A DNA stretch of 64,000 nt, taken from assembly GCF_964213995.1 (NCBI RefSeq), contig NC_135819.1, positions 52,204,001 through 52,268,000 of the forward strand, read 5' to 3'. Position 1 is the stretch's first letter; every line of letters starts with the position of its first letter. The stretch comes from Mustelus asterias. Its lineage: Eukaryota. This document shows, in pieces, positions 25,701 to 62,999 of this stretch. The notes below the pieces were generated by a model. The model searched no databases and was not told the origin of the DNA. It worked only from the letters and a program-made list of their open reading frames with translations. Both the position numbers and the translations under genes were made by a program.

Positions 25701-26828
25701 CATCTCAGTGTATAATTAATGACTTCACAGCAGAGGGAAAAAAGACAACGTTTTAGGTTTTCATTGTCAGGTATACAGTCAATTAAATGTGTTAATAATT
25801 TCTTCCGCGTGAGACATTCTTCTCCTTCATGCACTAACAGTTTCTGCATTGCTCGTTTGAGTGCGGGACCTCATTTTGCCTTTAACCTGTTAACTTTCTA
25901 TCCATTTTTAAAGATCCGAACACTCTCAATAAATAAAAGATCTCACATCGCATTATACCAATAATTTGGGGCATAGAGCTCTGTGCAGATTACCTTCATT
26001 GGGCTGATGTTGCTGTCTCAAAATCTTGCACTGGTTTCTCAGAGTGAATGAGTACTCGGAGCTCTCAGAAATGGGCTTTGACCGACAAGATCTTGGTGCT
26101 GGAAAGCTTTGTTTTCTGGAGGGGTGTCAAGGGGATATGTCACTGCAGTGCAGCTTGTGCATATTGGAGGCTTAAGTGTATTAGGCTGAGCAAAGTTTGG
26201 AAGTTTCCAGAGAGCTGCTTTGTGCTCAAGCATGTAAATGGCTTCTTTCCTTTGCTGCTTCTCTCGACAGTCTTTCCATTCTACTTTACTCTATTTCTAT
26301 CTCCTAATGCTGTCACTTTCCTCCTTTCTCTCTAGTAACCTGGTCTTGTCACTATCCCTTTCTATATTTTTTTCTTCCTTCAAGGAGAGTGCAGGAGTGA
26401 AAATGAGGAGCAGCATTAGCCAGCAGCATAACGTAACAAGAGTGAAATAGCTATAATGCAAGTGAGTTAGATTTACACAACCTTTATTTTACAATCACTT
26501 CATATAATCAACATTAGTTGGGGGGAGTTCAGGACAGTGAATGGATGTGGTGCCAACTGCTAACAAAGTGCAGTGTGTACACAAATTCAAGGCTGTTGAT
26601 TTGTGTGGTGGGAGCGAGAAAGGTTTGAATAGGGGAAAGGGCAATTTAAAAATCAGAAAGTATTACTGAATTGCCTTCAAAGTTTACGTATTGTATGACT
26701 GACTGCATACCACAGATTTTTTTCAGAGTATGATTTGTTTGGAAAGAGAGTTCATTTCAGAGGCTGCAGATTTCATAACAAAGCCTAAAATGAAAACATG
26801 TATTGAACAAGTTTGCAAAGACACTCAC

Positions 26829-28195
26829 CTGTCAGGCTGAATGCATGGGACAGATACTACCGGCACAGCAGTACATTTTTCAACTAAGAGTTTACGAGCT
26901 TTCTTGGTCTTCTGCCTTGCCTTACATTTTGTTTTAGTTGCCTTGTTAGGTGAATCTTTTTTACATATGCCATTTTTCACTTCAGCTGGCTCATAAATGT
27001 TTAATGGCCTTCTCACGCACCCAGGAGGCGTGTGCACAGCACAGAAAGCAGTCTTTTTCACAGTGAATGTTGTTGTTCCATTGGATGCAGTTTCTTTAAC
27101 AGGCTCCATTTTCATGTACAGACCTGCTTGTTGAGCACAAGTTACATGGAATGCTGTATAACAATTTGCCTTTTGGCACTGGATGCAAGCACCAAGCCCT
27201 TTCTGTTTGCAGAGGTAGCATGTCAATTTCCACCTGGCTGCTGGAATGTTCTTGACACCATCAATAGGCTCTATGAATACAGTGTTAGCAAATCCAACTT
27301 CAGGAACCCATAGTGCACAAACAACATGACCCCACTGACCATCATCTGTCTTCTTGAAAGCACCACCCTTATTTGGGCACAAGATACAATCAACAGGTCG
27401 CGAAGGGGATTGCAAACAACGACGGCACAACCACTGTCCTTCGGGTATATAAGGAACTCCATAGCATTCCTGATGCACTGCTAAGTTACACATGTCGCAA
27501 AACAATATTACATTACTGTTTTGACATTCGCCATCCATGCAAATACAACAAACAGCATCTTCATCAATTAGCGACTGAGGATCACCTTGATTAGAATTTT
27601 CAAAGTAAGATTCCTTCTCTAGTTTATCCATGAGGAACTCAAACACATTCTGCGAAACTGCACTCAAACCATCACTTTTGCGCCTTTCATTAATCATTTC
27701 CAACCATGCATAATCCTCTTCATCCATATCGTATTCAACTTCATTATTGAGCTCCTCTGGAGATTTCTCAATGAGTCTGTAATAAGATGAAGGCCGACGA
27801 GGTGCTGAAGGTGGTTCATAATCTACTATTCTAAATCTGGGTTCTGGCAATGCATTCACTTGTGTTGGAGCTCCATGTGTACTCGGAGTAGTGGCATCCT
27901 TCTTTTTCACTTTATTAGATTTGTACCTTTTAGTCTTTACGAAAACAAGAGGACGCTCACTATTTTCCTTGTTGCTGTTACATTCAACAATTTCTTGGGC
28001 AGTTAGGTCATCTTCTGAAATGATTTCCAAAGGATCATAAATACTGATCCTGTGCAGCCGACCATCAATCTCCATTTCAACCATTCGCTGTGCTTGAGCA
28101 TATGTTAGCATTTCACGGCTTGGTGAATGCTTCAGGCTGCAAGGTGAAGCTGGACGCCTTGCTGTCCCTCGTTGGCACCTTCCTTTCCTTCTCAT
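26829..28195 (-). CDS. BRD1: BRD1/BRPF2 first coding exon (EPC-like N-terminus, PHD-zinc knuckle-PHD module)
   Basis: ORF 26825..28195 reads MRRKGRC...[24 protein letters not shown]...[13 protein letters not shown]...[50 protein letters not shown]. Ends in an AG|GTGAG donor (exon end 26829); acceptor about 15 nt upstream of the ATG. Confidence 0.97.
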
Positions 28196-29836
28196 CGTTA
28201 ATAAGGAAGTCTGCTGAAAAATTAATCAAAAAGTCAAGAATAGCTATGCTACCAAAAGTTACAAAAGCATCACAATGACTGCCCAGAAGTTAGAATGGAT
28301 CAAGTAATAAGACAAATAGGATGCAATTGGACAACTCCACTCCTGTGATCCCACTGTTAAATAAATCCTGGGTTATTTTTTCAGTACTGTTTTTGATCTA
28401 CAAAAGAGTCAAGGATTATTGGGGTGGGTAGGGGGCAGGTAGGAAAGTTAACACCATAATCAGATCAGCCATGACCTATTGAATGGTGGAGTAGGTTTGA
28501 TGGGCCAAATGTCCTAATCTTGCTCCTAACTCTCATGCATAAATCCAGCAACACCTTTCCATAACTGTTTCCACTTCAATTATTTCTCATTACTAAACAA
28601 CCCAAGACTAATCTCACTGACCTATGCCCCTTCCAAGTATTTATCCATTTTCCAATAAAATATGGAACCACTGTGTTAATTACTCCTATGGTAAAGCATT
28701 TTATGCTCTACCAACCTGGAGTAAACTATTTTTTTCTAACCTCCTTCTAGCTTTTCCTGTTCCTATGAATATAGTATAAGCATCTCAGGATGTTGCAGTT
28801 GCTTGCAATTCCTTGTATCAGCTTGGTTGAGGTCTGCACTGTACACTTTTTATGGCTTTAATGACCTTTCTACAATAAGGTGCCAAACTTTATGGATACT
28901 TGAACTGGCCTAACAAATAGTTTGTACATTTTAATTATATTAACTCCAGTATTCTATGCCCATAAAAGCCAAAACGCTTTATTTGTTTGAAAAAATGGTT
29001 TTATCTAACTGCAAGTCTGAAGTTCTAACATTTATCAGATCATTTATCAATAATTGTTGAAATTATATCCAGTAAAGTAAATCTCAAAGTAAATGGTACT
29101 ACTTTTGTTTCTTGTACTGTAATATATAAATTTCATAATTTAATCCCTGTACAAATTATACTAAATGTAACTGTTATTGAGGTAAAGATAATCAAAGTGA
29201 ATGTCTATGTTTAGTTCCAAAATGCACCCAAGATGTTGAGTTTGGATGAACTTTGCTCGATTCCTGCATTGATCACGGAAAGTGGCAAACTTCTAGTTTA
29301 AGTTTTCAAATGTCATGGTTCCTTGAGCACATCATCACCAAAAATCACACATGCACTTCCCACTGGGTGATGAATAGAATGAAATCAATTTCTCCCTTTC
29401 TAAGCAAAGCTGGAGGCATACTATTGTGCCCAATTACCACCCAAGCTGAGATCAACTAACCGATTACAAAGCAAAAATTAAAATTGGGATCATTGAACAG
29501 TAGCACTCACTTTACCAAGTGAAACAGAGGAACCCCTGGGTATTTTTTTTCTAAATGAACCTCAATGAACCTCAGTTTCACAAAAAAAAATTTTGAAGTC
29601 AACATATTTGGTTCCCGCTATATACTTTGTATCCTTGACACCAAACCAAGCCCTTAACTGTCATAGCCTGAATTAAGACTGTTTTCAACCATGGCAACCC
29701 TAATCAATATTCTAATCCAATACCTGCTCCAGCACAAGATTTGCCTACTTCCATCGAACATTGCATGCATTCACTCCACTATGGCCCATCTGCAGCTGAA
29801 ACCACCATTGTGCTCTTCACTGGGCTAATGATAGGA

Positions 29837-30236: not shown

Positions 30237-32999
30237 CTAATGATAGGATGCAGTAGTAGAGTTCTGGAGCAGCTGAATTTTGTGGAGGGAGTGTCAGCCA
30301 GAAAGGACGAGGATGTCAGGACTGGAGAGGGCAAAAGCATTGATGAGTCTTAAAAAACATCTTGTGGATGATAATGTTTATTGGAGCAGTCCACCATATT
30401 GCTGAATTCTGAAAATTATTAAGCAGCTACCCATCAGACATAAAATACTTGAAGATGAACATTACAATAAAGGAAAGAGATAATTTCGTCTTATTATCTA
30501 GACTTATTAAAATTTCTATATGAACCCTGACTTAGCTTTAAAGGAAATGTGCTTACTAAGATAAAGCAGCAGGTTAAATACTAGGGAGGGAGTTGAAGAA
30601 GCTGAATCTTAATATTCATGCTCAAGTAACAATTTAGACTTCAAAAGCATGTGTTTAATTATCTGGTCCTGAAGAGTTTCTAGCAGTTTGCTTTCCACAA
30701 GTCTGCATGAAAGATGATTTTAAGCTAGAACACTGTGGATACCAGCATTAAAAACATCTAAAACTGACTTCTGCAGGATATTACCTGCAGTAGCACTATT
30801 CTACTGACCCAATCTTCAGATGTTCAAGTACTTTTTTATGGAATAAAATGTATTTGGTAAGCAGTCTTTTACAGTTAACTGTAGTTTCCTCTAATGTCAC
30901 TTGCTGGAATTATCAAACTGTCAATCTTCTTATATGGATAGACTGAAACTTTTGCTTACCCTGGGGATTTTTCAAATGAGCCTGGACTTGGAAAACACAA
31001 CAAAATTACACAGGCAGAATGAGGATCTTTGGTGCCAATGAGAACTTAATAAATGTAATCAAGTTAGGACACATCTGATCTAAAATCTATCCACATTTCT
31101 TCCTCACAGCCCATAAGCAAGTCCACACGAATGGATGTGTCAATTATGAAAAAAAAAGTTTAACTTAAAGCATAACTGAAAAGAACTAGAGGGCCATTTA
31201 AAATGAACAAAATAATTTAAGCGTTACAATGGAAAATCATGACAACCTAATATCCTGCTTTGCATCTGTGTTCCAGCCATTATTCAAAATAAAGTGCTCG
31301 AGTCAAGGGCATAGCTCACAATAGAATGTGGGAATGAACAATCTTCAGACTATATACTCTTAAATTCTAGAACATAAAGCCAAATAAAGAAATGTGACAC
31401 CACTGTCATTAAGATTTCAGAAATCAACAGTACAAGGAATAAAATGTGTCTTAATGACAGAAACAGACCCAGAATATATTTAGAAAATGCTGTTTCCTTT
31501 CCACACCAAACAGACTGTGTTCCTTCTAAGTGCAGTAAGTTTAACCACCAACCTGTTGATATAACCTACTGCACTTACGAAGGTACATCTTAAACATGGC
31601 TAAGTTCTCAGGATAAACAGAACATGATACATACGCCAATCCTGTGGAAGATTTCACATTGCAAATACTAACCAATGCAGCGAATTGTCCACAAAACTGA
31701 CAGTTTGTTTTGAAAAGCTGAAGCCAAGATTGGCAGTTAACATGGGGAGAGATTCTTGGAAAGGGCAGGGTGTTCTCACCACAGGTTGTGGGGCTGGGTA
31801 GGGGAAAGCACAGCCCACTTGCAGACAAGTAAAATTCCATACAGAGAGGGGGAGGGAAGGAAACAAAACAAAAAATGCTGGGAAAAACTCAGCAGTTCTG
31901 ACAGCAACTATGGAGAGAAAATAGAGCCACGGTTTTGAGTTTGGACGACCCTTGGTCAGAGCTTGTGAATGAATGAACTAATGAATTAGGAACGACTTAC
32001 TGAATCCCTAGAGTGCAGGAGGCCATCAGGCCCTACCCCCGTAACCCCACGTATTTACCCTGCCAATCCCCCGACACTAATTTAGCATGGCCAATCAACC
32101 TAACCTGCACAGCTTTGGAATATGGGAGGAAACCGGAGCACCTGAAAGAAACCCATCCAGACACATTGAGAATGTGCAAACTCCACACAGTCACCCAAGG
32201 CCGGAATTGAACCCAGGTCCCTGGCACTGTGAGGTGGCAGTGCTAACTATCATGTTGCTCTATTCTCTCTCCACAGATGCTGTCAGACTTGCCTGGTGTT
32301 TTTTTTAAGTTTCAAGAAGGAGACAGATATATTTATATTAAGAGGATAAAGTGACATGGAGAACAGGTGGATTTGGTACCAGTGAGAGATCAGCCATGAT
32401 CTGATTGAATGTCAGAGCAGGCTCCAAGGGCTGATTTTGCCTACTTCTGCTCCTAATTCCTCTGTTCCTATTTTGCCTTTATCTTAGGGGAGAGGAGAAG
32501 GAGGCATAGAATCATATAATCCCCCACAGTACTGAAGGAGGGCACTCGACCCAATTGAGCTTGCACTGACAACAATCCCAGCCAGGCCCAATCCCTGTAA
32601 CCTCATGGATTTTCCCTAGATAATCCCCCTGATACTAAGGGATAGCTTAGCATGGACAATCAACCTAACCCGCAGATCTTTGAACTGTGGAAGGAAACCC
32701 ACACAGACACGGGGAGAACGTGCAAACCAAGCGAACCCACTGAAGCACAAGTAGCCAAAAGACTGAACGTTTGAGGAAACAAGCTCCAGCTTCAGGGCGC
32801 CTAAAGTTTTGTCAGCAAGGCATAAGTAGGAAGTAGTGGATGGAGGGAGTATAGCAGGGAGGGAGTGTCCACTGTGTGTGTAGGTGGGGGGAACAGCGAG
32901 GGAACCCTGAGCTAGGAGGGAGGGGAGAGCTGAGCATGTATGTATGTGGAGGGGGGGGCTGGGCGATAGGAGGGGAGGGGAAGGAGAGAAGAGAAAGTA

Positions 33000-34400
33000 C
33001 TAAACCCGGAAGTGGCTCGAGGCCCGTGGGGGGGGTGACGTCAGCGCGTCCCCCGTTTGAATGGAGCGGTGGTAGCAGCGGCGCGCGGCCCCGAGGAGTG
33101 GGGGCGAGCCGCGGGAGCGACTCCGCGCGCATGCGCGCAGGCCCCCCACACCCCCCCCCGCCACACCAACAAGTACCCGCTCCTCCCAACAACAGCTTAT
33201 ACGCGCCATCCATCCCGCCCTGTCCTTAAAAAACTCCCCGACACAAAACCCACCCACACTCCCAGCGAAAAGATAAAGCACACATTACAAAATAAAATGG
33301 CGTCCGACAAAAACAAGGAGCTGGAGGTGGTAACAGCCTCCCTCCTTCCCCTATTCCAGTCAGGTTAAACAGTCACCCCACTCCTCTCACATTCGAGGGG
33401 GGGGGGGGATTGGTTTAAATAAAATACGACAAACTTACCCCCGGCCGATTGGTGTTTTATTTCCTCTTTCTTCCCCCACCCCCGCGTGTCTGTGTGTGTG
33501 TGTGTGTCAGCCCCGGTAGCGCCCTCTCGGTGCAGGCCCCGGCTCCGATCGCCTCTCTTTCCCCCCTCTGTCTCTCTCTCTCTCTCTCTCGGCCGTTCAT
33601 CAAACGGACCGAGCGCGTTGCCCGACGCTCCCCGGGCGAATGAAAACACGGCGGCCTCCAGTCCGCCCGCCGGCCGGCCCGCGCGCGCGCCCTCTCCCCG
33701 CGTTCCACGGCCAACTGTCACGGAACGTGCCAACATTCGACAGCACTGACCCCTTCCCCCCCCACACACACACACACACACCCACCCCCCAGCTATCTCC
33801 CCACTCGGGCTGCAAAGCCTCTCTCTCCCCTCCCCCCACTCTTTTTGCGTTTCTTCAACAACAATGCACCGTTTCGCTGACGCAATACGTCGGAGGGCAT
33901 CTACGTCACACGCAGCACGGCCTGTCAGATGAACGGCTGCCCCCTCCCCCGCCCCCGAAGAGCCTTCGTCCACCAATGGGCGGACCCGGCGCCCTCTCCA
34001 CCAATGGGCGAGCCCCTGGGCGTCCTCTCCACCAATAGGGTGAGCTGGCCCGGGGTCCTCTCCACCAATGGGCGAGCCCCTGGGCGCCCTCTCCACCAAT
34101 GGGTGAGCTGGCCTGGGGTTTTCTGTAAGGGGGGGCGGGGGAGTGATTTTCCGTGGCGGTTGCAGCGCGCGCAGTTAAAGCCCATGGGAGGAAACCCCGT
34201 GGTTGAGCGTGAGGAGGGAGCTGGGAGTGGCGGTTTGGGCTGGAAGCGCAACCACAATGTTTATTGAATAGACCGGCGGGGGGAGGGTGCCTGCTTTTTT
34301 AAAAAAAATGTTCCCTCCGTGGGCGTGTGTCAGGGAGGTCTGGTTGTGAGCGGAAGTGTGTAAATCTGCGTGGTTCCATTCGGGCCCTTTAAACATTAAA
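33000..34400. promoter_or_regulatory. CpG island / BRD1 promoter region with non-coding first exon(s); probably the ancestral divergent BRD1-ZBED4 promoter
   Basis: Sharp GC/CpG enrichment. Motifs: CCGGAAGTG (ETS/GABP) 33006-33014, TGACGTCA (CRE) 33036-33043, GCGCATGCGC (NRF1) 33127-33136, AAAATGGCG (YY1) about 33294-33302, five CCAAT boxes 33973-34100, GGGGCGGGG about 34132. A minus-strand GG|GTAAGT donor puts a candidate exon end at 33439. Confidence 0.8.
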
Positions 34401-37400
34401 CCGGGTGACACACTGGTCAGCACTGCTGCCTCGCCGCGCCAGGGACCCCGGGTTTGATTCCCGGCTTGGGTCACTGTGCGGAGTTTGCACGTTCTCCATG
34501 TGTGGGTTTCCTCCGGGTGCTCCGGTTTCCTCCCACAGTCTGAAAGACGTGCTGGTTAGGGTGCATTGGCCATGCTAAATTCTCCCTCAGTGTACCCGAA
34601 CAGGCGCCGGAGTGTGGCGACCAAGGGATTTTCACAGTAACTTCAGTGCAGTATTAATGTAAGCTGACTTGTGACACCAATAAATAAACTTAAAACTTAT
34701 CCTACACATGGCTATAAGAAAAGCAAATAGTCCAAGGTCTGACAATTGATTCTCCACACCCTTAATTTCTTTTGAATAGTATTTAAATGGATTGTAATCT
34801 TCTTCATTCAACATTGTGCCAAGTAAATTCTCCCTCAGTGTACCCTAACAGGCGCCGAGTGTGGTGACTAGGGGGTTTTCACAGTAACATTGCACTGTTA
34901 ATGTGAACCTACTTGTGACACTAATAAATAAACTTTCAACAACACACGTTTATATATGGCAGCTTTTTGTCAACAGCCATGAAGCGGTGCCTCTGTCCAG
35001 TTTACATGGAAAAGAAGGTTTACAGTGATTCCTGTGATGGCAGGTCGGTCATATGAGAAGATGAAGTTGGTTAGGATTATATTCACTGGAGTTTAGAAGA
35101 GCGAGAGGGGAATCTCACAAAAACTTATAAAATTCTAACGGTTAGACAGGTAGCCACAATGTGGAGATGTCGGCGTTGGATTGGGCTGGGCACAGTAATA
35201 AGTCTTAAACACCAGGTTGTGAGACTTCTTACTGTAAGATAGGGTAGTTTCAGAAAGAATGTTCCCAATGGTGAGGGGGTCCAGAACTAGGGGTCATAGT
35301 TTCAGGATAAGGGACTGAGGTGAGGAGAAATTTCTTCACTCAGCGGGTGGTGAATGTGTGGAATTCACTACCACAGAAAGTAGTTGAGGCCAAAACGTTG
35401 TCCAATTTCGAGAAGAAATTAGATATAGCCCTTGGGGCTAAAGGGATCAAAGAATATGGGGAGAAGATGGGATTAGGTTATTGAACTTGATGATCAGCCA
35501 TGATAATGAATGGTGGAGCAGGCTCGAATGGCCTACTTCTGCTTCTAGTTTCTATGGCACTGGGAGCTGCTGCACTCTTATTCAACCCGCAGCATGGTAA
35601 AGGATGAAGTGCTGGGAGGGAGGCGGGGGGTGACTGCTCAGTATCGGTCAGAAATCCGGGAGAGGGATTTACCTGATCCTCATGTGGCTGTCAAGTGAAC
35701 ATGCTCAAGGGGGAAGCAAAAGATCAACAACAAAAACACTCTTGATATTGGTAGCTTCCACCTTCCCTTGATGTCTTTATTTGCTTTTGAGAGAACTGGT
35801 TACGGTTGATTGGGCAGATAGATAAGAAAGATATGACTATAAATGAACAGTGGGAACCATCAAAATATCAAACGAAAATGTTCATAACAAATGCATTCCA
35901 TTGAAAAACAAAAACTCTGCATGAAAGACCCCTCTTGGCTCACTCAGGAATTTAAGGATTGTAGATTAAAAGAAGAGGCCTTTAATTTGCAAAGTCTGGA
36001 GAATTGGGTGCATTTTAGAAACCAGCAAAGGACTACCAAAAAATTGATTAAAAATAGAAGAGGGTAAACTAGCCAAAGATGTATATTAAAAACAAAACTT
36101 AAAAAACCTTTAAAAGTCTATGAAAAGAAAGAGGAGCTAAAGTAAACTTCCATCCCTCAGGCAGGAAAAATTATCATCGAATCTCTACAGTGCAGAAGGA
36201 GGTCATTCGGCTTATAGAGTCTGCACCGACTCTTCAACAGAGCATCTTGCCCAGTCCATGCCCTATTTTTGTAACCCCACATATTTATCCCACTGCTCCA
36301 CACATATTTGGACACTGAGGGGCAATTTAGCATAGTTAATCCACCTAACCTGCACATCTTTAGACTGGGAGGAACCTAGAGGTAACCCACACTGACATGG
36401 GGGAACATGCAAATTCCACACATAGTTACTCAAAGTTGGAATTGAACCCAGGTCCCTGGAGCTGTCCTTGTACATATTTAAGGCTGAGATGGAATCAAGG
36501 GTTATGGAGAAAGGGCAGGAAAGTGCATGTGGGGAATGTTGGATCAGCAACGATCCCAATGAATAGTGGAGCAGGCTCGAGGGGCTAAATGGCTTATTCC
36601 TATTTCTTATGGTCTTGCTCTCTTTCTAAAACTTTGACGTAATTCCAAGAGTTAAACACAGAATTCCAGATATGGCCTAACCATTATTTTGTTTTATTAA
36701 AGTTTAGCATAACCTTCTCACCTGTGTGCTCAACTTTCTTTATAAAAGTCAAGGATCACTTTTTATTAGCTTTCTCAACTTGTCCTGCCACCTGTTAAAG
36801 ATTTGTATACTTATAATCGCTAATTCTTTGTTTCCCTTGTTATGATCAGGTGAGGAGAGGTTGATTGGCTCTCCACTTTGCCCTCGCTTCATTTAACGCA
36901 AGTTTTTTTGTTTTCAAAAGGATATACTTGCCAATTCCGTCAGTATTTAACTGTTTATACAGTGTAATCATAAAAGGACCAGTAAGACAATGGGGAAGGA
37001 TAGATTGTTCAAATTAGAGTCCATAAAAATAATTTAACTTTTAAAGTTGGATTACAAATAATTATTCTGCATAAAGCACACCTTATGCACTGCAGAGTTT
37101 AAAATTTGGAACTATTGGTTTACATTTCCTCTCTTCATTCCTCCTTCCAAAACGTACCAATTTTTATTTGTGCTAAATTGCATCTGTCATGCGTCTGTCC
37201 ATTTCACCTGTCTTTGTCCTGAAGCTTGTTACTATTCTCCTCACCGTTTGCTGCATCTCTTATGTTACCTCCCATCTGCAAACTTTGAAATTATGCCCTG
37301 TTTACGTAAGTTCAAGTCGTTTAATATATCAAAAAGAGCAGTGATCCCAATGCCAATCCCTGGGAGACAGCACAATATATACCTCCCTTAGTCTGGAAAA

Positions 37401-37984
37401 AAATACTACCTTTTATTTACTGTATCCAAAAAAAGCACTGACCCCTTAATGCTTCAGGTTTACTGCTCCGCATTAGTTTGTATTTTATTGAATGTCTTTG
37501 GAAGTTCACATACATCACATCAAATAGACTACCTTCATCAATCCTCTTGATTACTTTCAGGAAATATTCCGTGGTAACATTTTTGCAGCTAACTATATAC
37601 TAAACTTTCGATTCACTTAAATTTTACTCAGTCCAACCACTAGCTAGCCTTTGGCCCTTTATTAGCCACAACAGTTCTCCAGTCATTGATTTGCACAATC
37701 TTTCATTCACCTTTATCTTTGTCCCATTAAAACTTTTAAATATCCTCTACCTCTATGCAGATATTGTGACCATGTCTCTTTCCATTTTCCTGCTCGTTGG
37801 ACCTCCTCTTACTTGATTCCACTCTTACCATTACAATTCTCGCAAGAGCACATCCAGCAATTACTTCATATCCTGTCCCGGCACCCTCACATGCAAGTTC
37901 ACCAACTCTGATCTATTTCACCAACATCTTGATCTTTTGCAACACTCTCTACCACTTTGAGCAATTGAACCTTTACTAAAATAA

Positions 37985-40320
37985 AAGGCCACAAACCTCA
38001 GGAACGTGGAGTAATTTTACTGTGTTCCCATTCAACTGTACAGAGGCGGTGAGTATGCATTGTCACTGTATATGAGTAGAAGGAAAAGGGATTATCCTGG
38101 TATGTTATGTTTAAGACACCTATATCAGTTCTATGCTTCTGTTCTTAAGCATGGCAAAGATCTTTCCTAAGGAACATCTCACTCAGACACCCATCTTATG
38201 GCCACCTTACCTTCTCGTTCAGGACATTTGGCCACAAATCTATTCTTGATCTATGTTTCATTTGTTGCAACAATGAGACAAAATGCTATACTTATTGATA
38301 ATATCAAAATTAAGGAAATATTTTTCTATGTTCCACAGATCTAACCAAAATAACATGCATCCACTGTAACTATACAATCAGTTCAGGAAAGCAAACCTCT
38401 CTTCTATTTTCACTTTGGCATCTTCGGACATTTCAACATTTGCTTGTGCACGGTGTTGATCTATTAGATGTTTCATTTTCATCTTCATCCTGTTTCAGAG
38501 CTGCTATTTGAAACTCAACTTATAGCAGCAGCCTCTGACCACAATAATGTATGGATTTCTCCAGCAAGTGCCAACAATGTTGCAAGTCTAATTGCTGAAA
38601 TGATAGTATTAGAGCTCCAGCCACTTTCTGTTCTGAAGAATGTTGATTTCACTCGGAGGTTATTGTCATATTTACAGTTACAACATTCTGTATCATATGC
38701 ATCTTCTCTCGGATTGCTGTGTCAATAATGCTGGACTGTGTGAGGGCTTTAAATCTGACAGAGACAAGAGTGAACGGTGCATCTTATAACTGGCGTATGG
38801 ATGAGTAACAAAATTAGGAAATACGTAAATGACATCTAACTGGGAATATTTGATTCTTCTTTATGCTCAGTGAGTCAGAAAAATTATTATTGTTCTACTT
38901 TACTAAATGTATCACATATTGACTGTGACCACATGTTATCAACATCCAGAAACATTTGGAATCCTCACGGGTCAGTTTGGGTCAACTCATCTGGACTGGA
39001 GATTGGTTTCACTATTGCTGACAATGAGCAAAATGTCCTGAAAACGCTGAAGGGGAGTGGATGTGCAGTTGTTCAACATTTTGCTCGTACTATTTATATA
39101 ATTGATGGTTCAAGATATGGATAATAGTGCAGACCTCAGTCACTCGGAAAGCATGTGAATTAATATCCCTAACATTACCAAAAGCCCATAAAATTGGAGG
39201 GGATAACTCTGCAGCAAGTTCTAGAAGTAATGAGTTGCAGAATTCATTGGTTCAGATTAAAGAGTGGCATGGCGGCACAGTGGTTAACAGCTGCTGCCTC
39301 ACAGTGCCAGGGACCTGGATTCGAATCCCAGCTTGGGTCACTGTGCGGAGTTTGCATGTTCTCTCCATGTGTGCATGGGTTTCCTCCCGGTTCCCTCCCA
39401 CGGCCTGAAAAATGTGCTGGTTAGGTGCATTGACCATGCTAAATTCTCCCTCAGTGTACCTGAGCAAGTGCTGGAGTGTGGTGACTAGGGGATTTTCACA
39501 GTAACTTCATTGCAGTATTAATATAAGCCTATTTTTGACACTAATAAACTTTAAGAGAGAACAGCTACAACCATACAAATAAGTAAACTTTAATAATCTT
39601 CTTGCACGAGAAAAAATTCACATGTAAACACTGGTATTATATTGCATTGCAGAGGAAGTTCAACTCAAAGTCTCAGTTTAAAATACAGTTTAAACTGTAA
39701 CCAGCTTGCACATAATTACTGTGAATTTATTGTGAAAATATCAATTTATGTGGATGCCATAATAGATGAACGGTGGTTAATAACTTGCTCTCTTCAGATT
39801 TAGTTTTCTTGAAGAAGGACCAAGTCTGCTTCACAACAGTAAAAAAAAATCAAATAGAAAAGCCTTTTAAAACTTGGACCCTCAACTATTTTCCAGTGAT
39901 TTTCTGAGAGATTCTGTACAAAGATTATAGCAGTGATTGGTTTGGTTTCCATTCAGGCATGGTGGCACAGTGGTTCGCAATGTTGCTTCACAGCGCCAGA
40001 CACCCAGGTTCGATTCCCGGCTTGGGTCACTGTCTGTGCAAAGTCTGTATGTTCTCCCCATATCTGCGGGTTTCCTCCGGGTGCTCTGGTTTCCTCCCAC
40101 AGTCCGAAAAACGTGCTGGTTAGGTGCATTGGCCATGCTAAATTCCCCCTCAGTGTACCTGAATAGGCGCCAAAGTGTGGCGACTGGGGGAATTTCACAG
40201 TAACTTCATTGCAGTGTTAATGTGAGCCTATTTGTGACACTAATGAATAAACTCTAAGAAAAAAAATTACAGATGCAGATTGTTAAAGTAACTAGCATTT
40301 TGTTCCTCTGGCAGAATTTA
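37985..40320 (+). pseudogene. ZBED4: ZBED4 pseudogene (BED finger and hAT transposase-derived relic, frameshifted, interrupted by two SINEs)
   Basis: Collinear peptide fragments in shifting frames: WSNFTV...MHC..MSRRKRDYPGMLCLRHLYQFYASVLK (BED finger); VASLIAEMIVLELQPLSVLKNVDFTRRLLSYLQLQHS; FSRIAVSIMLDCV; VHLITGVWMSNKIRKY; YCSTLLNVSHIDCD...WVNSSGLEIGFTIADN...VQHFARTI; RKACE. They follow remembered ZBED4 sequence (SLIAEMIALDLQPYS, IHFTSGIWMSNQTREY, CSALLDVSQVDCD, WVTSTGLQVGITVTDN). Position and strand are syntenic. Core 38000-39260 is strong; the 3' extent is weaker. Confidence 0.88.
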
Positions 40321-41473
40321 CTGTTTCAAATGTATGTACAGAATTCATTTTGGAAATATTAATAACTGCTCAACAGAGTGGATATGAATAGAGCCATCAA
40401 TTATTAACCTTAGAGATCAAAAGTATGAACTAGACATTCAAATCTGTCAAGTTGTCTTTTCATATAAAATGTATTGGTACATGTCTGAGGTATATAGGAT
40501 GGTGTTTCAAGGGTTATTTACTAAGTTTAAATCCATATAAGCTACTGAGGATAATATTACTTTGATTTAGAATTTATCTAACACTAAAGTAACACAACTC
40601 TTCTCAAATTCCAGATTTTTAAAGTTCAAAGAGGATAATGAGATAAGAAATATATAGCCTCAAATAGGAATGAGCTAACTAGATGTTGAGACCTGTTTTT
40701 GCAAGCTAGGTCTATGCTACATTAGCTTCTAGATTCAGTGTAAGATTTGACCACTTTTACCTGTAAATCGGAGGGTCAATTTAGTCCAATTTGTTTAGTC
40801 CTATGATTCCAAAACAACTTTAACAATTCCCAATAACTTCAGAAAGCTACAATGAAAGTTATTTTTATCATTTCAAATTCAGCCAATAGACCCAGAAGTA
40901 GATATATCACTGCTTTTCATCCGATGAAGGCAAAAAAGAGATTGGACAGGTAAACCAATTAAACGGTCTTGTGTGCAGAATGATTTGTAGAGCAGTAAGG
41001 CGTAACTATCATGAAGTTATGTTGCAGTAAATGCTGAAAGTCTGAGAGATATACAGAGATTAAAGTTCGATTCCTGTACTCATCAGTATGAAATTTTCTG
41101 GCCATTCACTTCAATGGATGGAAAATTATGGGCTGGAAACATAGAAGCACATTTCTTATCATATGTTGTTGATTGTAAAACTGAGGAGGAAGGACATGAT
41201 TCAGGTTTTAAAACCAGGAAGGAAACTGGGTAGGTGTAGAAACTCTGAGTAAAACTAGAAGTGAGCAAATTAGTCTACTCAATGTTTTTTAGCTTGACGC
41301 AAGTTAAATAGCAAAATCCTCACAGTTATCTTATTCCATAAGTACCCATGTAACATTGTGATCAAACACTAATAAAACAGATAGATTGTTGAATAAAGGG
41401 GAAATGAGCAAAATGCTGTCTGTGAATTTTAAATTTTGAATAGAATGGTGAGGTGGAATCAGCTGGATAATTC

Positions 41474-41720
41474 TTATCCTTTTCTCCTTTGTTCATTATG
41501 CGTGTATATTTTTTCTAATACCACTAATTTTGTCTCAGTTTTAATATAAAATGGAGGTAGTTGAGATAAGTTAAATCCAATTCCACTAAAACCAGAAATA
41601 TTAAACATTATCCTATGGGTGTTTCTATACTGCAATATATGTCCTGGATTCATTTCCATTAGGTAGTGTGTATATGTATTGCCTTCAACATCTGGTTTAA
41701 GATCTTCCCTCTTGTCATAT
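41474..41720 (-). CDS. ALG12: ALG12 last coding exon (RYDKREDLKP...YTHYLME...NLSQLPPF...TKLVVLEK...stop)
   Basis: ATATAG acceptor; stop at the ORF end 41474. Summed CDS is 1488 nt, i.e. 495 aa plus stop. Confidence 0.94.
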
Positions 41721-41829
41721 CTATATATCAAAAGGGGAAGGAGGGGGGAAAAAAAATCAAAATTACAATCTTTTCACACCAAAACACGAGTAAACACACT
41801 CAAATTAGGCTTCTTGAATTTCCTTATAA

Positions 41830-42300
41830 CAAAGAACAAAGAAAATAACAGCACACGAACAGGCCCTTCGGCCCTCCAAGCCTGCACCGACCATGCTGCC
41901 CGACTGAACTAAAACCCCCTACCCTCCAGGGACCATATCCCTCTATTCCCATCCTATTCATGTGTTTGTCAAGACGCCCCTTAAAAGTCATTATCGTATC
42001 CGCTTCCACTACCTCCCCTGGCAACGAGTTTCAGGCACCCACTACTCTCTGTGTAAAATCTGCCTCGTACATCTCCTTTAAACCTTGCCCCTCGCACCTT
42101 AAACCTGTGCCCCCTAGTAATTGACTCTTCCACCCTGGGAAAAAGCTTCTGACTATCCACTCTGTCTATGCCTCTCATAATCTTGTAGACTTCTATCAGG
42201 TCGCCCCTCAATCTCTGTCGTTCCAGTGAGAACAAACCAAGTTTCTCCAACCTCTCCTCATAGCTAATGCCCTCCATACCAGGCAACATCCTGGTAAATC
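41830..42300 (-). mobile_element. CR1-type LINE 3' end
   Basis: RFTRMLPGMEGISYEERLEKLGLFSLERQRLRGDLIEVYKIM plus GGGCCGAAGGGCCTGT tail. Confidence 0.88.
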
Positions 42301-44723
42301 TAAAGCAAAATGGAGATTTTAAAGACTTCCCGTCGAACAGTTTATTTTCTTCCCAGCAAAGACAATGGGCCATAACTACTTTGGAGTCGCAATCAGAGTC
42401 AGATTGCCACTCTGTACCTGGCTTGGGTCACTGTCTGTGTAGAGTTTGCATGTTCTACCAATGTCTGCGTGGTTTTCCTCCAGGTGCTCCAGTTTCCTCC
42501 CACAATCCAAAGATGTGTGTGTTAGGTGCATTGGCCATGCTAAATTCTCCCTCAGTGTTACCCGAACAGACAGCGGCAGAGTGTGGCAACTAGGTGATTT
42601 TCACAGTAACTTCATTGCAGTATGAATGTAAGCCTACTTGTGACCAATAATTAAACTTTAAATTTCATTGGTGCCAGTATTATCCAGCCTTCCTGACTCA
42701 GGCCGGGTGAGATCCAAGTATCGCAGCTATCCACGAGGCCTACTGTTGAAGGCTTAGATGGTCAGTGAAGAAGGACCCTCCCCTTTTTTTTGTCACACTA
42801 ACTACTATAAAGCAGGCAAGTTTAAAGGCCCCACTGAAAATGACAGGCCAGGGAGAAGGTAGGGGTGAGGGTGTCAGTTTGGAGGGGTGTGCTCCAGCCT
42901 GGTCATGTGGGTGAGGGCTGTGACGGAATCCTGCCACGATAGGTTGGGGATGAGAGTCAGGCCCGTTGGGATGGTGGGACGGTTAGTTGTCAGGGGGTGT
43001 GAAAGGGAGGGTCGGGATGTGCGGGCATCGGTCTGGGTAATTAAAACAGTTACAGAGAAGTGTGGAGAGGTTTAATTCTAACTTTTTCTGAGCACAACGC
43101 TGGCAGAACCATCTGAAGTTGATGACTTAAATCACTTTCTTAGATGGTGCGCAATGCCCAGGGGAAGTTAGTGCTTCTGGACAGTTGCCATGCAAATGCT
43201 CACCTGGGAAGTTCAGAGAGAGATTGCCCAGTGTGTCTTTGGGGTACCCCCCGTTTCCCCCCCCGCCCAACCCTCCCCGCAAATCCAATCCCAGGGAGCC
43301 CAAATGTTAGCCCAATTATGACCAAGTCTTGAATTCTCACAAACATCATGGATTTGTGACTATTTATTATTTAGAGATATCTCTACTTGTAAAAAAATGA
43401 GTGCCATACCATTTACCATTCCAATTCAGAATCATGGGGAAACTTTCACTTCCAGCAGAAGCACTTATGGATTAGCCACGCTTCATATATGTCACTCAAT
43501 TTTCCCTTTCTATTGTCTTTAAAAATTGGATGGAATGAACAACAGAGAGCCAATTCATAGCTAACTGCTTCCTGCCCACACCAAAAGTAAAAATTGGCCC
43601 ACTTAATCTTAAAGCAGAGGAGCACAAGAATCCCTCCCCTTGTGTCAGCTCACAGTTCCACTATCCATAAGCTATTTTCCAAATTGATCCATTATCAATT
43701 ATCTATTGGAGGCACTAGAATTGGGGACACAGTTTAAGAATAAGAGGTCTCCCAGTTAAGATGGTATGGGCGGCACGGTGGCACAGTGGTTAGCACTGCT
43801 GCTTCACAGTGTCAGGGACCTGGGTTCAATTCTCAGCTTAGGTCACTGACTGTGCGGAGTCTACACGTACTCCTCCTGTCTGCGTGGGTTTCTTCCGGGT
43901 GCTCCGGTTTCCTCCCACAATCTGAAAGACATGCTGGTTAGGTGCATTGGCTATGTTAAATTCTCTTTGTGTACCCGAACAGGCGTATAGCCAATGCACC
44001 TAACCAGCACGTCTTTCAGACAGTGGGAGGAAACCAGAGCACCCGGAGAAAACCCAGGGTGCACAGGGAGAACGTGCAGACTCCACACATAGTGACCCAG
44101 GGAGAATGTGCAGATTCCGCACAGACAGTGACCCCAAGTCGGGAATCAAACCGTGTGAGGCAACTATGCTAATCACTGTGCCACCATGCCACCTCTTAGA
44201 TAAGATCCTAAACAGTCTTCACAAGGTGGATGTGGAGAGAATGTTTCCTCTTGTGGGAGAGTCTAGTGGGCACTATTTTAAAATTAGAGGTCACCCTTTT
44301 AGGACAGAGGGGGGTCATGTAACTTTGGAACTCCCTGCCTCAGGAGGCAATGGAGGCAGTGTCACTGAATATTTTTAATATGGAGGCAAGATTGATTCCT
44401 TTGCCTAACAAGAATCTAAGGTTATCGTGGGTAGATTGAATGTGGATCAGCCATGATCTTATTGAATGACAGAGCATGCTCGAGGGCTCAAATGGTCTAC
44501 TTCTACTTGATAATTAGTTTGAGCTGTTTCACTAAAGATAAAAGAAAAATGGACAGAATACAAAATGAAATGAAATGGAGGGGAATTGGAGAACAAAAGG
44601 ATAGGGGGAGGTAATTAATGCAACTGTAATGACATTATTTCAAATAAGGAAATGCCTTTGTTTCATTAAAAATTCCAATTAATACCAAAACAAACATTGA
44701 ATATCCATTAGAAAATAACTTAC

Positions 44724-44799
44724 CTCCAACTTGGACTGAGTTCAAGGAATCGGGTAACACCAGTCTGTGCAGAAGCAACATCAATGTGCATGGAAACAG
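44724..44799 (-). CDS. ALG12: ALG12 coding exon 8 (AVSMHIDVASAQTGVTRFLELSPSW)
   Basis: CCACCAG acceptor, GTAAG donor, 76 nt; HIDxxxAQTGVxRF motif. Confidence 0.94.
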
Positions 44800-47700
44800 C
44801 TGGTGGGAAAGATGGAGGCGAGAGTGAAACTAGGAAGAATCCTCATGAAATATTCACTTGAAATTTGTTTCACAACTGTTAATAAGCAATATTGTGCATA
44901 ATATAGGAGAAATAGAACAAACGCAATTTAAGACACCAGTAAAAAAGTTGAGACACACAATTTAAAACTAAAAGGAAATATTAAGGTGTGAAGGGTAATT
45001 AACTGGAAGGATAGTAGAACTATCGCGTTGTATGAAGTTGGCAATACTAAGCGTCAAAAGTTGGGAATTCAAATGAATCTTGTCTACACTGAAATGCAAG
45101 GCATAGTATGCAGACTGGGTCAGTGCTGGACTAGAAGCTCTGGGTTTGAATCCAGTTGTTGGCCACAGAAGGAGTGTTCATAACATGGATTCAATGGACT
45201 GATAATCACCTTGGGAATCCTTCCACCACTGTCTCCATCATTCCCCAAAGGGTATAAAACAGTGTGGGTGTGAAGATGGGCTAAAAGAAACCCGAGGCTT
45301 CAGATGAAGACTTGCTGACTGGATGAGACTTACCAAGGAATCAATGGAGTGCTCTGGCTAACGCCTGAAGACCATCTGTGTAACTGCATATGAAAATGTT
45401 CACTAAACCTTCACGTCGTGAGTGAACTCTGAATTATGAAACTTTATTAGTCACATATTTGAAGTTGACAGCCACACCTATATAGGTCATGTCAAGGTGG
45501 CTGCAATTGATGTAGATCGAAAGAACATTCCTACATGCATTCAAATGTTGTTCCAATTCAAATTCCCAATAAAGATATTTCCTCAAAGCTGGACAGTTTA
45601 AACCTGCAACTCCTACAGACATTATATGAATGAGACTATAACTTTCCACAGGAAGTATATGATCTCCATCTTTTTCAACCAGTGGGGACGCAAAATAAAG
45701 ACAAAGGAAAATCACATTTCCTCTTGCACAACTCCTACTGACCAGCCTCAGAATGGTGGCTGCGTAACACAGACAACACATCACTCGCCTAACCCCTCAC
45801 CTAAAAACCTTTAAATGACCAAGGGAAATTGGCTTGATTATTTAGTTAATGTGCAAATTATGCCAATAAAGCATTAATCGTTTGCAATAATCAGGAAAAA
45901 ATATAAATAATGCAATGTTTTTTAACTATAATAACCAAAACAATTCATGACTAAAATAAGAACACAAGAACTAGGAGCAGGAATAGGCCATCTGGCTCCT
46001 CGAGCCTGCTCCACCATTCAATAAGATCATGGCTGATCTTTTTGTAGACTCAGCTCCACTTACCCGTCCGCTCACCATAGCCCTTAATCCCTTTACTGTT
46101 CAAAAAATTTATCTATCCTTGCCTTAAAAAACATTCAATGAGGTAGCCTCAACTGCTTCACTGGGCAGGGAATTCCACAGATTCACAACCCTTTGGGTGA
46201 ATCACATATCAAAAAACTCGAGGCTAAAATGAATTCATGTAACTATACAATGTTGTGATAGATTCCTGATGACATAGTGGCTCATTCCAGAAAAATAGCT
46301 GCCTTTAAATGCTTCACATATTGCTCACTATTTCACGCTCGTGAGTAAATTAGAGGCTGATTCGCCAAAACACTAAGCACCCAGATGTTGTGTAACAGAT
46401 CCCGATTTATTATCTGCATAAACTCTTGGAGCTCCATCTCAGCGGACGAGTTTTCCTACAACAGCAATTTTGATTAAGTCTTAATTGTATATGTGGACTG
46501 GGTGTTCTTCAGTTTCATTGCTGATATAATTGAGGTGACAGTTCATATTGTTGTTTAGCCTCCTACACAAAACAATGGAAGTGCCAGTACACATGTAAAT
46601 GTCATCCAGCGCTTGTTTTGCTGACTCTGCCGTGCTCTAATTCTTGGTAGCAAGCATGCAACTGGTTGGTTTATGAATAGGTAATATCAAATGTTTGTCA
46701 GTGACAGTTCTGACATAATACATGGGCAGCCCTTAGATAGTTCTAAGGAATTGGAAGCTCGATGCGCTGGCCCTTTATTTTTGTGCACCCTGACACCAGG
46801 ACAAACTTAAGCACTACAATAAAGCAATATTATTATCGTAATATTAACACAAAACTACTAAAATAAAAACACTTCAATAAAAGTGCACTTGCCCCTTCTT
46901 CATTTCACTCCCTCATTATTCTCCCTTTGTTTCAACTTTTAATTTTATTAAACTTAAATGCATTATTATGACCTAACAGTTCTTTCTTTTGTAACATTAA
47001 TTAAATAATACTATCTGTGTTGTTCTGCCTCAAGTTTATCTGTTTTGAAGACAAGATCTGAATTGAACAATTTCATCTTTGATTGGCTATGAATCATTTT
47101 TGATATTTAAAGTTTATTTATTAGTGTCACAAGAAGGCTTACATTAACACTGTAATGAAGCCACTGTGAAAATCCCCAAGCCACTGCACTCTGGTGCCTG
47201 TTCGGGTACACTGAGGGAGAATTTAACATGGCCAATGCACCTAACCAGCACGTCTTTCGGGTTCTGGAAGGAAACTGGAGCACTCGGAGGAAATCCATGC
47301 AGACGCGGGGAAAATGTGCGGACTCCACATAGACAGTGACCCAATCCGGGAATTGAACTCAGGTCCCTTGCGCTATGAGGCAACAATGCTAACCACTGTG
47401 CCACCCCAAGCTCAGATGTACGAGGAAACAATGTGGACGGAAGTGTAAAGAGCACAATTGCTGTAAATGCAAGTCAATGTTGTAATATCAGTCTTACCAC
47501 ACTCAAACTTATATTGTGGTGTACCGATATCTTATTTCGCAAAGGTTGGCAAGTCACGCCATTAATGGAGGACACCACTCATTGTAAACAAACTATCCCT
47601 AATTAAAAATCATTACCAATGGGCTTATTTTTACACAACTGTAAAATGTAATATCTTGCAGTGTCCGCCAACCTTCATGGAAAACAGATCGTGAACAGGT

Positions 47701-58369: not shown

Positions 58370-59198
58370 GGGCCCCATTTTACCATTTTGATTCTAAGTG
58401 CTGGATGGACTTGAATCTAGGAGTGTTTCAGACCCGACCTTTAGACCCATTCTCAAGACGGGCATACGCACTTTGCCTGAAAAAATATCAGTGATTCCGA
58501 ATCGCGCTGCACAAGCCTGTGGGTGGGACTTAACGCGTTCGAAATCCTGCAGCTCCGATCAGCACCTCCAACTGCGCATGTGCAGAAAAAAAAGATAGAA
58601 TGCAGCTCCCCTGCCACATCCCTCCCAGGCCGAATAATGCCTCCCCCTGGCCCCCACAAACATTGCTCCGCCCCACAACATTACTGACCCCCTTATTCCC
58701 CCAACCCCTGCCACCCAGACCGATCGCGGCCCCCAGCCCATTTCCCCCCCACCGATCTCAGGCAGTGTGGCAGCGGACCCCCGCCTTCCCCTTCATTGAT
58801 CACAGGCAGAGTTCGAGCAGACCACCCCCCCACCGATCTCAAGCAGAGAGCCGTCGGACACTCGGCACTTACCTCCTCACTAACTGGAGCACCCAAATCG
58901 GACTTTTGGAGAGCATGTCTGTTTCACGCCGATTCTGGATGGGCGAACGTGGTGGTAAAGGGGGAAATATCAGTGAGGTTGGGGATGCAGCCCATTAAGT
59001 CAATTTAAATGCATGCAAATATATTTAAATGGCGGTCACGCCAGTTTCGGGCACGGTCCTGATCGCAGCCATTTTCGGGCCTTGGTAAAGGGGGAACTGG
59101 CGCGGAGTTGGGCGCAGATCGCGCTACTCTCTTCACGCCCGACTTTACCAAGTTTTCGCACCTGAAAATAGGTGCAACACAATGGTAAAATCGGGCCC
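58370..59198. mobile_element. Non-autonomous TIR DNA transposon (PIF/Harbinger-like MITE)
   Basis: TIRs GGGCCCCATTTTACCATT ... AATGGTAAAATCGGGCCC (one mismatch); no transposase ORF. Confidence 0.75.
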
Positions 59199-59310
59199 GC
59201 TGGCTCTATTCTCTCTCGATGTGGAGATGCCGGCGTTGGACTGGGGTAAACACAGTAAGAGTTTTAACAACATCAGGTTAAAGTCCAACAGGTTTATTTG
59301 GTAGCAAATG

Positions 59311-59347
59311 CCATTAGCTTTCGGAGCCCTGCTCCTTCGTCAGATGG
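59311..59347 (-). ncRNA. Minimal type I hammerhead ribozyme motif, inverted-arm copy
   Basis: Reverse complement is identical to the 61931-61967 motif. Confidence 0.75.
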
Positions 59348-62242: not shown

Positions 62243-62329
62243 CTGCGAAAAAGAGAAGCCTCAGTAAGTGAAACAGACAAGAAATGGATAGCGTGCCAAT
62301 TGCAGTCTGGCTAGCTGGTGAACAAGTAC

Positions 62330-62494
62330 CTTGTCCAGGTGCAGGCGGTGGTACAGCAAGTCGTGCGCCGCTTGCAGGTTGAAACTTTCCTCCACTTTAG
62401 TGAAGGGACAAGCCAGCAGGTGAAGGGAAGCGAGCAGAAGCAGAAGTAGCAGGAGAAACACTTCCCTTTGCGCATCCCGGCTCCTCTCAGCCAT
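62330..62494 (-). CDS. ALG12: ALG12 first coding exon (MAERSRD...[27 protein letters not shown])
   Basis: [13 protein letters not shown] motif of the ALG12 alpha-1,6-mannosyltransferase; ATG at 62494, GTACT donor. Confidence 0.94.
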
Positions 62495-62999
62495 GCTGGA
62501 GTGGAAGCACACAGTGCTGGGAGTGGCAATGCAATCCCCAAAGTTAGCACCAGCGCCAAATACACCGGAGTGCAATTGCAATGGCTGTCTGCAGTCAGCA
62601 AATATTTCAGAGGGGATACTGTTATCGAAATCTGGTCTTCTACACGTTTATTACAGAGCCATTGGGTGCCCTGATATGCCACATTGCACTCTAAAGAGGA
62701 GATGGGCTTGAAGCAGGAAGCCACATAAAGCAAAGGAAGGAAAATCAAGCAACTATCCAGCAGAGGGATCCCCTCCCCCTCTCTCAATGACGGCTAACAA
62801 CATCCAGTTCAAAGGAGACCTACACAGGATGTCACGGCTCACAATGTGCGTTCTGGCCGCGATTGAGCCCGACATTCAGTTGGTTATTTATCATAAGGGC
62901 AGGCTATTCTTTTAACGCATCTGTTGTCATTTTCCGGCATTATCAGTAATAAGACAGTCTGCTTGTTAACTACATGGATTGTGTTCGCCTGCTTATTAC

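Follow-up and report, generated by a model that had tools for sequence, protein, structure and literature searches.

A unitary pseudogene is the relic of a gene at its ancestral site in a genome that holds no working copy. The gene considered here, ZBED4, derives from hAT transposases, and intact orthologues were found in teleosts, coelacanth, lungfish and tetrapods. We take the human gene order to be BRD1-ZBED4-ALG12-CRELD2. The ZBED4 orthologues listed in Table 1 of a phylogeny of the ZBED family all flank ALG12, and domestication was inferred there to have taken place in the jawed-vertebrate ancestor; sharks and cartilaginous fish are unmentioned in that paper (PMC3606216). Coelacanth ZBED6 (XP_005986354) and the sister clade of ZBED6, ZBEDX and C7orf29 belong to the same domestication clade and likewise combine multiple BED fingers with a hAT core (PMC3606216). 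According to a review from 2021, bony vertebrates have zbed4 (PMC7786948).

ZBED4 raised reporters for vimentin, for rhodopsin and for both the blue and the green opsin in HEK293 cells (PMC3365051). It was also described that sws1 and sws2 were lost in all cartilaginous fish examined, in a study that does not mention ZBED (PMC12361510). Shark terms are absent from PMC9859435, and the term ZBED is absent from supplementary files 1-12 and 19 of a whale-shark study (PMC8455134). No published report of a shark ZBED4 or of its loss was found; supplements and subscription journals may bear on this point.

Position and content of the relic

The DNA analyzed is a window of 64,000 nucleotides from Mustelus asterias, a triakid shark. 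By frameshift-aware alignment to a frog/teleost ZBED4 profile, a collinear, frameshifted ZBED4-like relic was detected on the plus strand (37998-39195). It lies head-to-head with a BRD1/BRPF-type gene and tail-to-tail with an ALG12-type mannosyltransferase gene, which runs on the minus strand from about 62490 down to about 41470. The window contains the following features:

26825..28225, minus strand: first large coding exon of the BRD1/BRPF-type gene (EPL1, PHD, zf-HC5HC2H)
37708..37913, plus strand: putative upstream BED finger relic (BED2 position), weak, with a Pro/Ser stretch after it
37998..38164, plus strand: BED finger 3 relic (score 79, shuffle maximum 44, 0/200)
38165..38303, plus strand: BED3-BED4 linker relic with the only in-frame stop (ends 38170) and a frameshift
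38304..38450, plus strand: BED finger 4 relic (score 96, shuffle maximum 39, 0/200)
38570..38827, plus strand: N-terminal dimerisation region plus the beginning of the RNase-H fold (score 141, shuffle maximum 36, 0/200)
38830..39103, plus strand: relic of the RNase-H core as far as the second acidic motif, IADN (score 150, shuffle maximum 38, 0/200)
39136..39195, plus strand: last weakly supported block, ARKICE-like (1/200 shuffles reach its score)
39266..39556, plus strand: SINE copy 1 (up to 15 matches within the window)
39954..40259, plus strand: SINE copy 2
41470..41725, minus strand: last coding exon of the ALG12-type gene, ends approximate (E 4e-15 to PDB 9s6t)
62261..62647, minus strand: open frame with the first coding exon of the ALG12-type gene (E 2e-15 to PDB 9s6t)

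For the gene at 26825-28225, the name BRD1 (not BRPF1 or BRPF3) is our assumption from synteny. Similarly, we take the mannosyltransferase to be ALG12 within the family PF03901; its other exons match PF03901, and the chain of PDB 9s6t is labelled only Mannosyltransferase. Beyond the window, after the ALG12-type gene, a Cys-rich exon resembling CRELD2 was found (L025:8520-9011). A GC-rich stretch is located at 32001-34000. Only the interval 39200-41470, about 2.3 kb, separates the last part of the relic that can be recognised from the stop of the ALG12-type gene; the 3' UTR of this gene could overrun the lost 3' half of ZBED4, and a minus-strand AATAAA is found near 39726. Near the 5' end of the ALG12-type gene, retroelement-like ORFs were seen at 58500-61600, with a reverse-transcriptase-like frame on the minus strand at 60099-60986.

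The alignment of the relic spans residues 451-859 of frog ZBED4, and 145 of the 367 aligned codons are identical; to coelacanth ZBED4 the identity is 41% over 351 aligned codons. A score of 362 was reached, whereas 12 shuffles gave 34-48, the reverse complement 50 and the reversed sequence 53. The aligned part consists of two BED fingers and the first third of the hAT core. Its coding frame is disrupted by 10 frameshifts, four of them between 38828 and 38980, and by 1 stop, and the longest ATG frame inside the relic has 86 codons. Sub-blocks were also tested singly against 200 dinucleotide shuffles each. The four comprising BED3, BED4, the N-terminal dimerisation region up to GVWMSN and the RNase-H part scored 79-150, which was equalled by none of the shuffles (0/200). 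None of 11 translated relic pieces matched Pfam, the sequence being too decayed, and no Rfam match was obtained within 33000-46000. As MAFFT misplaced several of nine relic pieces on frog ZBED4, a three-row alignment was used instead.

A first-pass annotation of this DNA had described one BED finger with lost Cys/His ligands. This loss applies to BED3, in which the first Cys and the last His are missing and a frameshift is present near 38072; however, two clear fingers were detected, and the ligands of BED4 are mostly intact (CxxC and the first His are retained, with a frameshift near 38328). Whereas the finger at 37998-38164 fits BED3 (77) and BED4 (76) about equally (ZBED6 fingers: 25-26), that at 38304-38450 is clearly BED4 (91 vs 44-55 for the other fingers and 34-40 for ZBED6 fingers). 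The weaker similarity suspected upstream to about 37690 corresponds to the weak finger at 37708-37913, which scored 40.6 against a shuffle maximum of 40.4 (0/200), but whose score with the frog profile is reached by 3 of 40 shuffles. This block abuts a repeat present in other contigs. BED1 was not detected, and a candidate near 36718 was rejected because 24 of 100 shuffles do as well. Two clear fingers and one weak finger thus precede the core, compared with four in intact ZBED4.

Collinear blocks had furthermore been claimed as far as 40320, comprising a dimerisation region and the transposase core. Collinearity holds over 37998-39195, which includes the N-terminal dimerisation region and the first third of the core, but the remainder is at chance level. 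Between 39195 and 40400 nothing rose above it (27-50 of 60 shuffles in four tests, 98 of 100 in another), and the C-terminal blocks out to 40320 were rejected since shuffles score as well. PF05699, the C-terminal hAT dimerisation domain, was undetectable; since its decay or deletion is expected in a relic, this fits all of the readings alike. Regarding the breaks, which had been attributed to frameshifts, stops and SINEs, the frameshifts are numerous and the stop is a single one, whereas both SINEs, although present, are located 3' of the last significant ZBED4 homology. It is plausible that they interrupted the ZBED4 coding sequence. The 5' start of SINE copy 1 is also present in X15, one of the related sources compared below.

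Relationship to ZBED4 and to hAT transposons

With 38558-39121 as query (X at stops), the only match among 754 candidates was frogfish ZBED4 (E 1e-17). In a search of 1.84 billion representatives, the same query gave 8 matches, of which the top four are named ZBED4; matches 5-8 are a coelacanth protein named ZBED6 and three unrelated repetitive proteins. ESM Atlas matches carry taxa at phylum level only. When the same DNA was compared to individual proteins with one aligner, the highest scores were obtained for ZBED4 of coelacanth (XP_006007424; 423), lungfish (XP_043922908; 407), frog (393), human (NP_055653; 372) and tarpon (371), compared with 132 for coelacanth ZBED6 and 38-78 for four hAT/ZBED1-like ORFs of the shark itself.

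The claim that the relic is an orthologue of ZBED4 and not a free transposon was upheld by phylogeny as well. In a tree of 17 rows the relic groups with 13 ZBED4 proteins (support 99/98), and the AU test rejects both its grouping with ZBED6 (p-AU 0.021) and its grouping with two of the shark's own hAT ORFs (p-AU 0.020); the read-through of the relic in these trees was derived from the alignment to ZBED4, which favours the ZBED4 grouping. Its placement outside bony-vertebrate ZBED4 received a support of only 60/4. The relic branch is very long (1.27-1.5, compared with 0.04-0.14 for coelacanth and lungfish), and support for the relic with ZBED4 falls to 90/74 in a core tree of 26 rows, one of which is the partial relic L006 described below.

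The GxWMSN motif that had been reported as typical of ZBED4 was recovered as GVWMSN at 38792-38809 (TGVW at 38789-38800). Hermes IDLW, which contains the first catalytic Asp, aligns to AGIW of ZBED4, and the relic likewise has Gly in TGVW. Of the DDE triad, the first Asp is therefore Gly in the relic, the second acidic residue is kept (IADN) and the Glu region is undetectable. Coelacanth ZBED6, in contrast to the relic, keeps the Asp (TTDMW), besides its lower score. More distant homology to the relic, in the RNase-H core and a BED finger, is found in the Hermes hAT transposase (PDB 4d1q, 2bw3) and in the four open ORFs of the shark (L001-L004); unlike the relic, Hermes keeps the catalytic Asp, and L001-L004 have one BED finger and open frames of 669-702 codons. 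With bony-vertebrate ZBED4, the relic shares the order BED3-BED4-hAT core, Gly at the first catalytic position and the location beside ALG12. Unlike bony-vertebrate ZBED4, it is broken and without a detectable BED1 or C-terminal third; in this state it cannot encode the protein and, judged by its sequence, likely makes no ZBED4 protein.

ZBED4 derives from hAT transposases and the genome has another decayed hAT-type relic (L006), so that one might think of the fossil of an ordinary free hAT transposon that lies between these genes by chance. This is the least credible of the readings considered, and its probability appears negligible. A multi-copy hAT family with TIRs had been named as the outcome that would speak for it; instead, the relic DNA has 1 match in the 3.68-Gb genome, and no TIRs flanking it were found among the 25 longest of 141 inverted pairs in 35000-43000, all of which are either pairs of SINEs or short stretches matching at 70-89% (TIRs of old age could have decayed beyond recognition). 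Moreover, at least two BED fingers are present, Gly replaces the catalytic Asp, the ZBED4 scores are three to ten times those of ZBED6 or of the shark's own hAT ORFs, and the AU test stands against a grouping with the latter. Taken together, the scores, the tree, the Asp-to-Gly change and the ALG12-type neighbour support the assignment of the relic as an orthologue of ZBED4.

Searches for an intact ZBED4 and related copies of the relic

Three ZBED4 protein queries of the genome gave 6, 6 and 7 matches. In each case the best match was the relic locus (33-36% identity), and the other matches, at 20-32% identity, were four open ORFs and one other relic. With the zf-BED model, 4 single fingers were found, all in the four open ORFs (150 of 349 candidates scored). 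An intact ZBED4 elsewhere in the genome, an outcome that the first-pass annotation had considered, was thus not found with the three protein queries and the zf-BED model. These searches are seeded and give lower bounds, one of the protein searches was stricter at its first look, and gaps may exist in the assembly.

Such gaps and lower bounds leave some room for a relocation, in which an intact ZBED4 survives elsewhere in the shark and the relic is an abandoned donor copy. We consider this very improbable. Bony-vertebrate ZBED4 orthologues are 67-93% identical to each other in the core, so an intact orthologue would dominate the searches and would be missed only if it were absent from the assembly, whereas the best match of the three protein searches reached 36%; in addition, no BED finger cluster was found among the zf-BED candidates scored. 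The relic is therefore very probably a unitary ZBED4 pseudogene, in agreement with the annotation: it is disabled and single-copy, it has an ALG12-type neighbour, and no intact copy was found. Like other unitary pseudogenes it is syntenic and has functional orthologues in other lineages. A difference is that the lost gene is itself a domesticated transposase, one kept from teleosts to mammals.

Apart from the four open ORFs L001-L004, no intact zf-BED match was obtained from the genome among the candidates scored. Two of the ZBED1-like proteins of this genome are identical, letter by letter, to NCBI entries labelled Mustelus asterias. L002 (L002:1453-3423; G000:C3:92.63 Mb) is a one-finger hAT-derived ORF of 657 aa, labelled only ZBED1-like. 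At 90% identity it falls into one cluster with proteins from 11 further shark/ray entries, it forms a branch separate from that of L001, and it looks like a further domesticated transposase. L003 (G000:C21:1.47 Mb) and L004 (G000:C24:60.39 Mb) are open one-finger hAT-type ORFs of about 670-700 codons. L006 (G000:C4:31738374-31739504, plus strand) is another decayed ZBED present in a single copy and is of the ZBED4/ZBED6/ZBEDX type, with scores of 253 for frog ZBED4, 228 for coelacanth ZBED6 and 96 for the ZBED1-like L001. It keeps TTDIW with the catalytic Asp, has several stops, and could be either an old hAT element or what remains of a further domesticated ZBED; within 50 kb of it no host gene could be recognised. 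At 30 kb from L006, an uninterrupted ORF of 1349 codons with a gag-like start, lying in a CpG-rich stretch (G000:C4:31768445-31772491, minus strand), is probably a young LTR retroelement. Elsewhere, two single-exon PF03901 ORFs form a tandem pair 23 kb apart (G000:C3:26341052-26342344 and 26364231-26365535; 563 and 585 codons).

Part of the relic stretch is present in 20 of the 21 runs listed, which carry several organism labels. The sources X3, X15 and X19 were compared, while X10 was patchy (14 of 30 bins) and left out. In X3 the stretch lies in one contig, with 48 substitutions (2.9%) and 44 gap letters. X15 and X19 cover 37600-39209, with 111 and 110 substitutions (6.9% and 6.8%) and 86 and 97 gap letters, respectively. 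Of the differences from these sources, 12 of 59 indels and 40 of 161 substitutions were listed, and 10 of the 12 listed indels are not multiples of three. Both X15 and X19 carry a +1 at 38588 inside SLIAEM, the best-conserved motif, and a 14-base loss after BED4; applying the listed indels to them results in 4-5 frameshifts before 38790. The BED3 frameshift near 38072 is private to the window lineage and is not present in X3, X15 or X19. These further frameshifts in X15 and X19 indicate that the loss is neither an assembly error nor private to this genome, and we infer that the X3 copy is broken too. Among window-private substitutions in aligned codons, a small sample, 5 of 12 are silent, which is consistent with a neutral expectation of 27% (P 0.19).

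No intact chondrichthyan ZBED4 was seen in the 754-candidate search, among the best 120 of 363 matches in either of two lists, or among the 8 representative matches; the protein collection includes shark and ray proteomes. In one of the 120-row lists, 15 of the 16 unnamed rows are nearest to tetrapod rows and one is lungfish. ZBED4 of gar, bichir and sturgeon is likewise absent from both best-120-of-363 lists, and of the 5 known ZBED4 proteins with 3 separate words in common with the query, the 754-candidate search returned only 1. As evidence, the protein searches are weak: the one thing they speak against is an intact relative with about 73% or more identity to the relic.

Age and mode of the probable loss

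Neutral decay was simulated with lungfish or tarpon ZBED4 as stand-ins and random back-translation. If all divergence was neutral, the observed score, identity and frameshift count are matched at about 0.18-0.33 substitutions per site, which exceeds the distance to X15/X19 per lineage (about 0.035) five- to ninefold. The simulations gave 5.7-8.1 stops, compared with the 1 observed. Of 420 simulations, 410 aligned 300 codons or more, and only 3 of these had at most one stop. The stop count is thus poorly matched by purely neutral decay that starts from a conserved protein. The shortage of stops suggests that part of the divergence was built up with an open frame, and hence that the breakage is younger than the protein distance suggests; this simplest reading, by which part of the divergence predates the breakage of the frame, depends on the stand-ins and on random back-translation.

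The large divergence, if all neutral, and the lack of an intact chondrichthyan ZBED4 among the matches listed, with shark and ray proteomes present, would also be expected for an element that was never functional on the cartilaginous-fish line, having been inherited at this site and decaying since about the bony-fish split. We give this explanation very little credence. In the relic the catalytic Asp is already changed to Gly and more than one BED finger is present, features that arose after domestication according to Hayward et al. (PMC3606216), the stop shortage points to open-frame evolution on the shark line, and an intact chondrichthyan gene may exist, given that two of the searches listed the best 120 of 363 matches each. 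As no intact chondrichthyan ZBED4 was seen, function of ZBED4 on the shark line after the split is something we infer.

The proposal that domestication predates the cartilaginous/bony fish split agrees with the multiple BED fingers, the Gly and the ALG12-type neighbour of the relic, and ZBED4 was likely domesticated from a hAT transposase before this split. Its loss, too, likely took place long before the separation of this shark from its close relatives. We propose that in the gnathostome ancestor a hAT transposase would have settled beside ALG12, its first catalytic Asp would have been lost and its BED finger multiplied; the latter two events are placed in this ancestor since both of these features of ZBED4 are already found in the relic. 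Selection would then have relaxed on the shark line, perhaps first with the frame still open, a stage proposed because stops are fewer in the relic than expected from neutral decay. Small indels would then have broken the frame, the 5' and 3' ends may have decayed or been deleted, and the SINEs would have landed where the 3' half would have been. The relic would now drift neutrally.

The split between skates and sharks has been placed near 259 Mya (PMC12361510). It is conceivable, although we hold it to be rather unlikely, that ZBED4 was lost by two successive steps, fast open-frame evolution and then breakage, in the stem lineage either of sharks and rays or of the cartilaginous fish as a whole. 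If it were true, then together with L006 it would mean that sharks discarded the whole ZBED4/ZBED6/ZBEDX domestication clade and kept ZBED1-type genes.

Unitary gene loss is an event of a known kind; the relic adds a new case to it and involves no new mechanism. As an orthologue of ZBED4, it would provide direct sequence evidence that a multi-finger ZBED4 with a dead active site was located beside ALG12 in the common ancestor. Its loss would mean that a long-lived vertebrate lineage can do without a domesticated transposase that has been kept from teleosts to humans, which would offer a natural knockout of a retinal transcription factor with a poorly known function.
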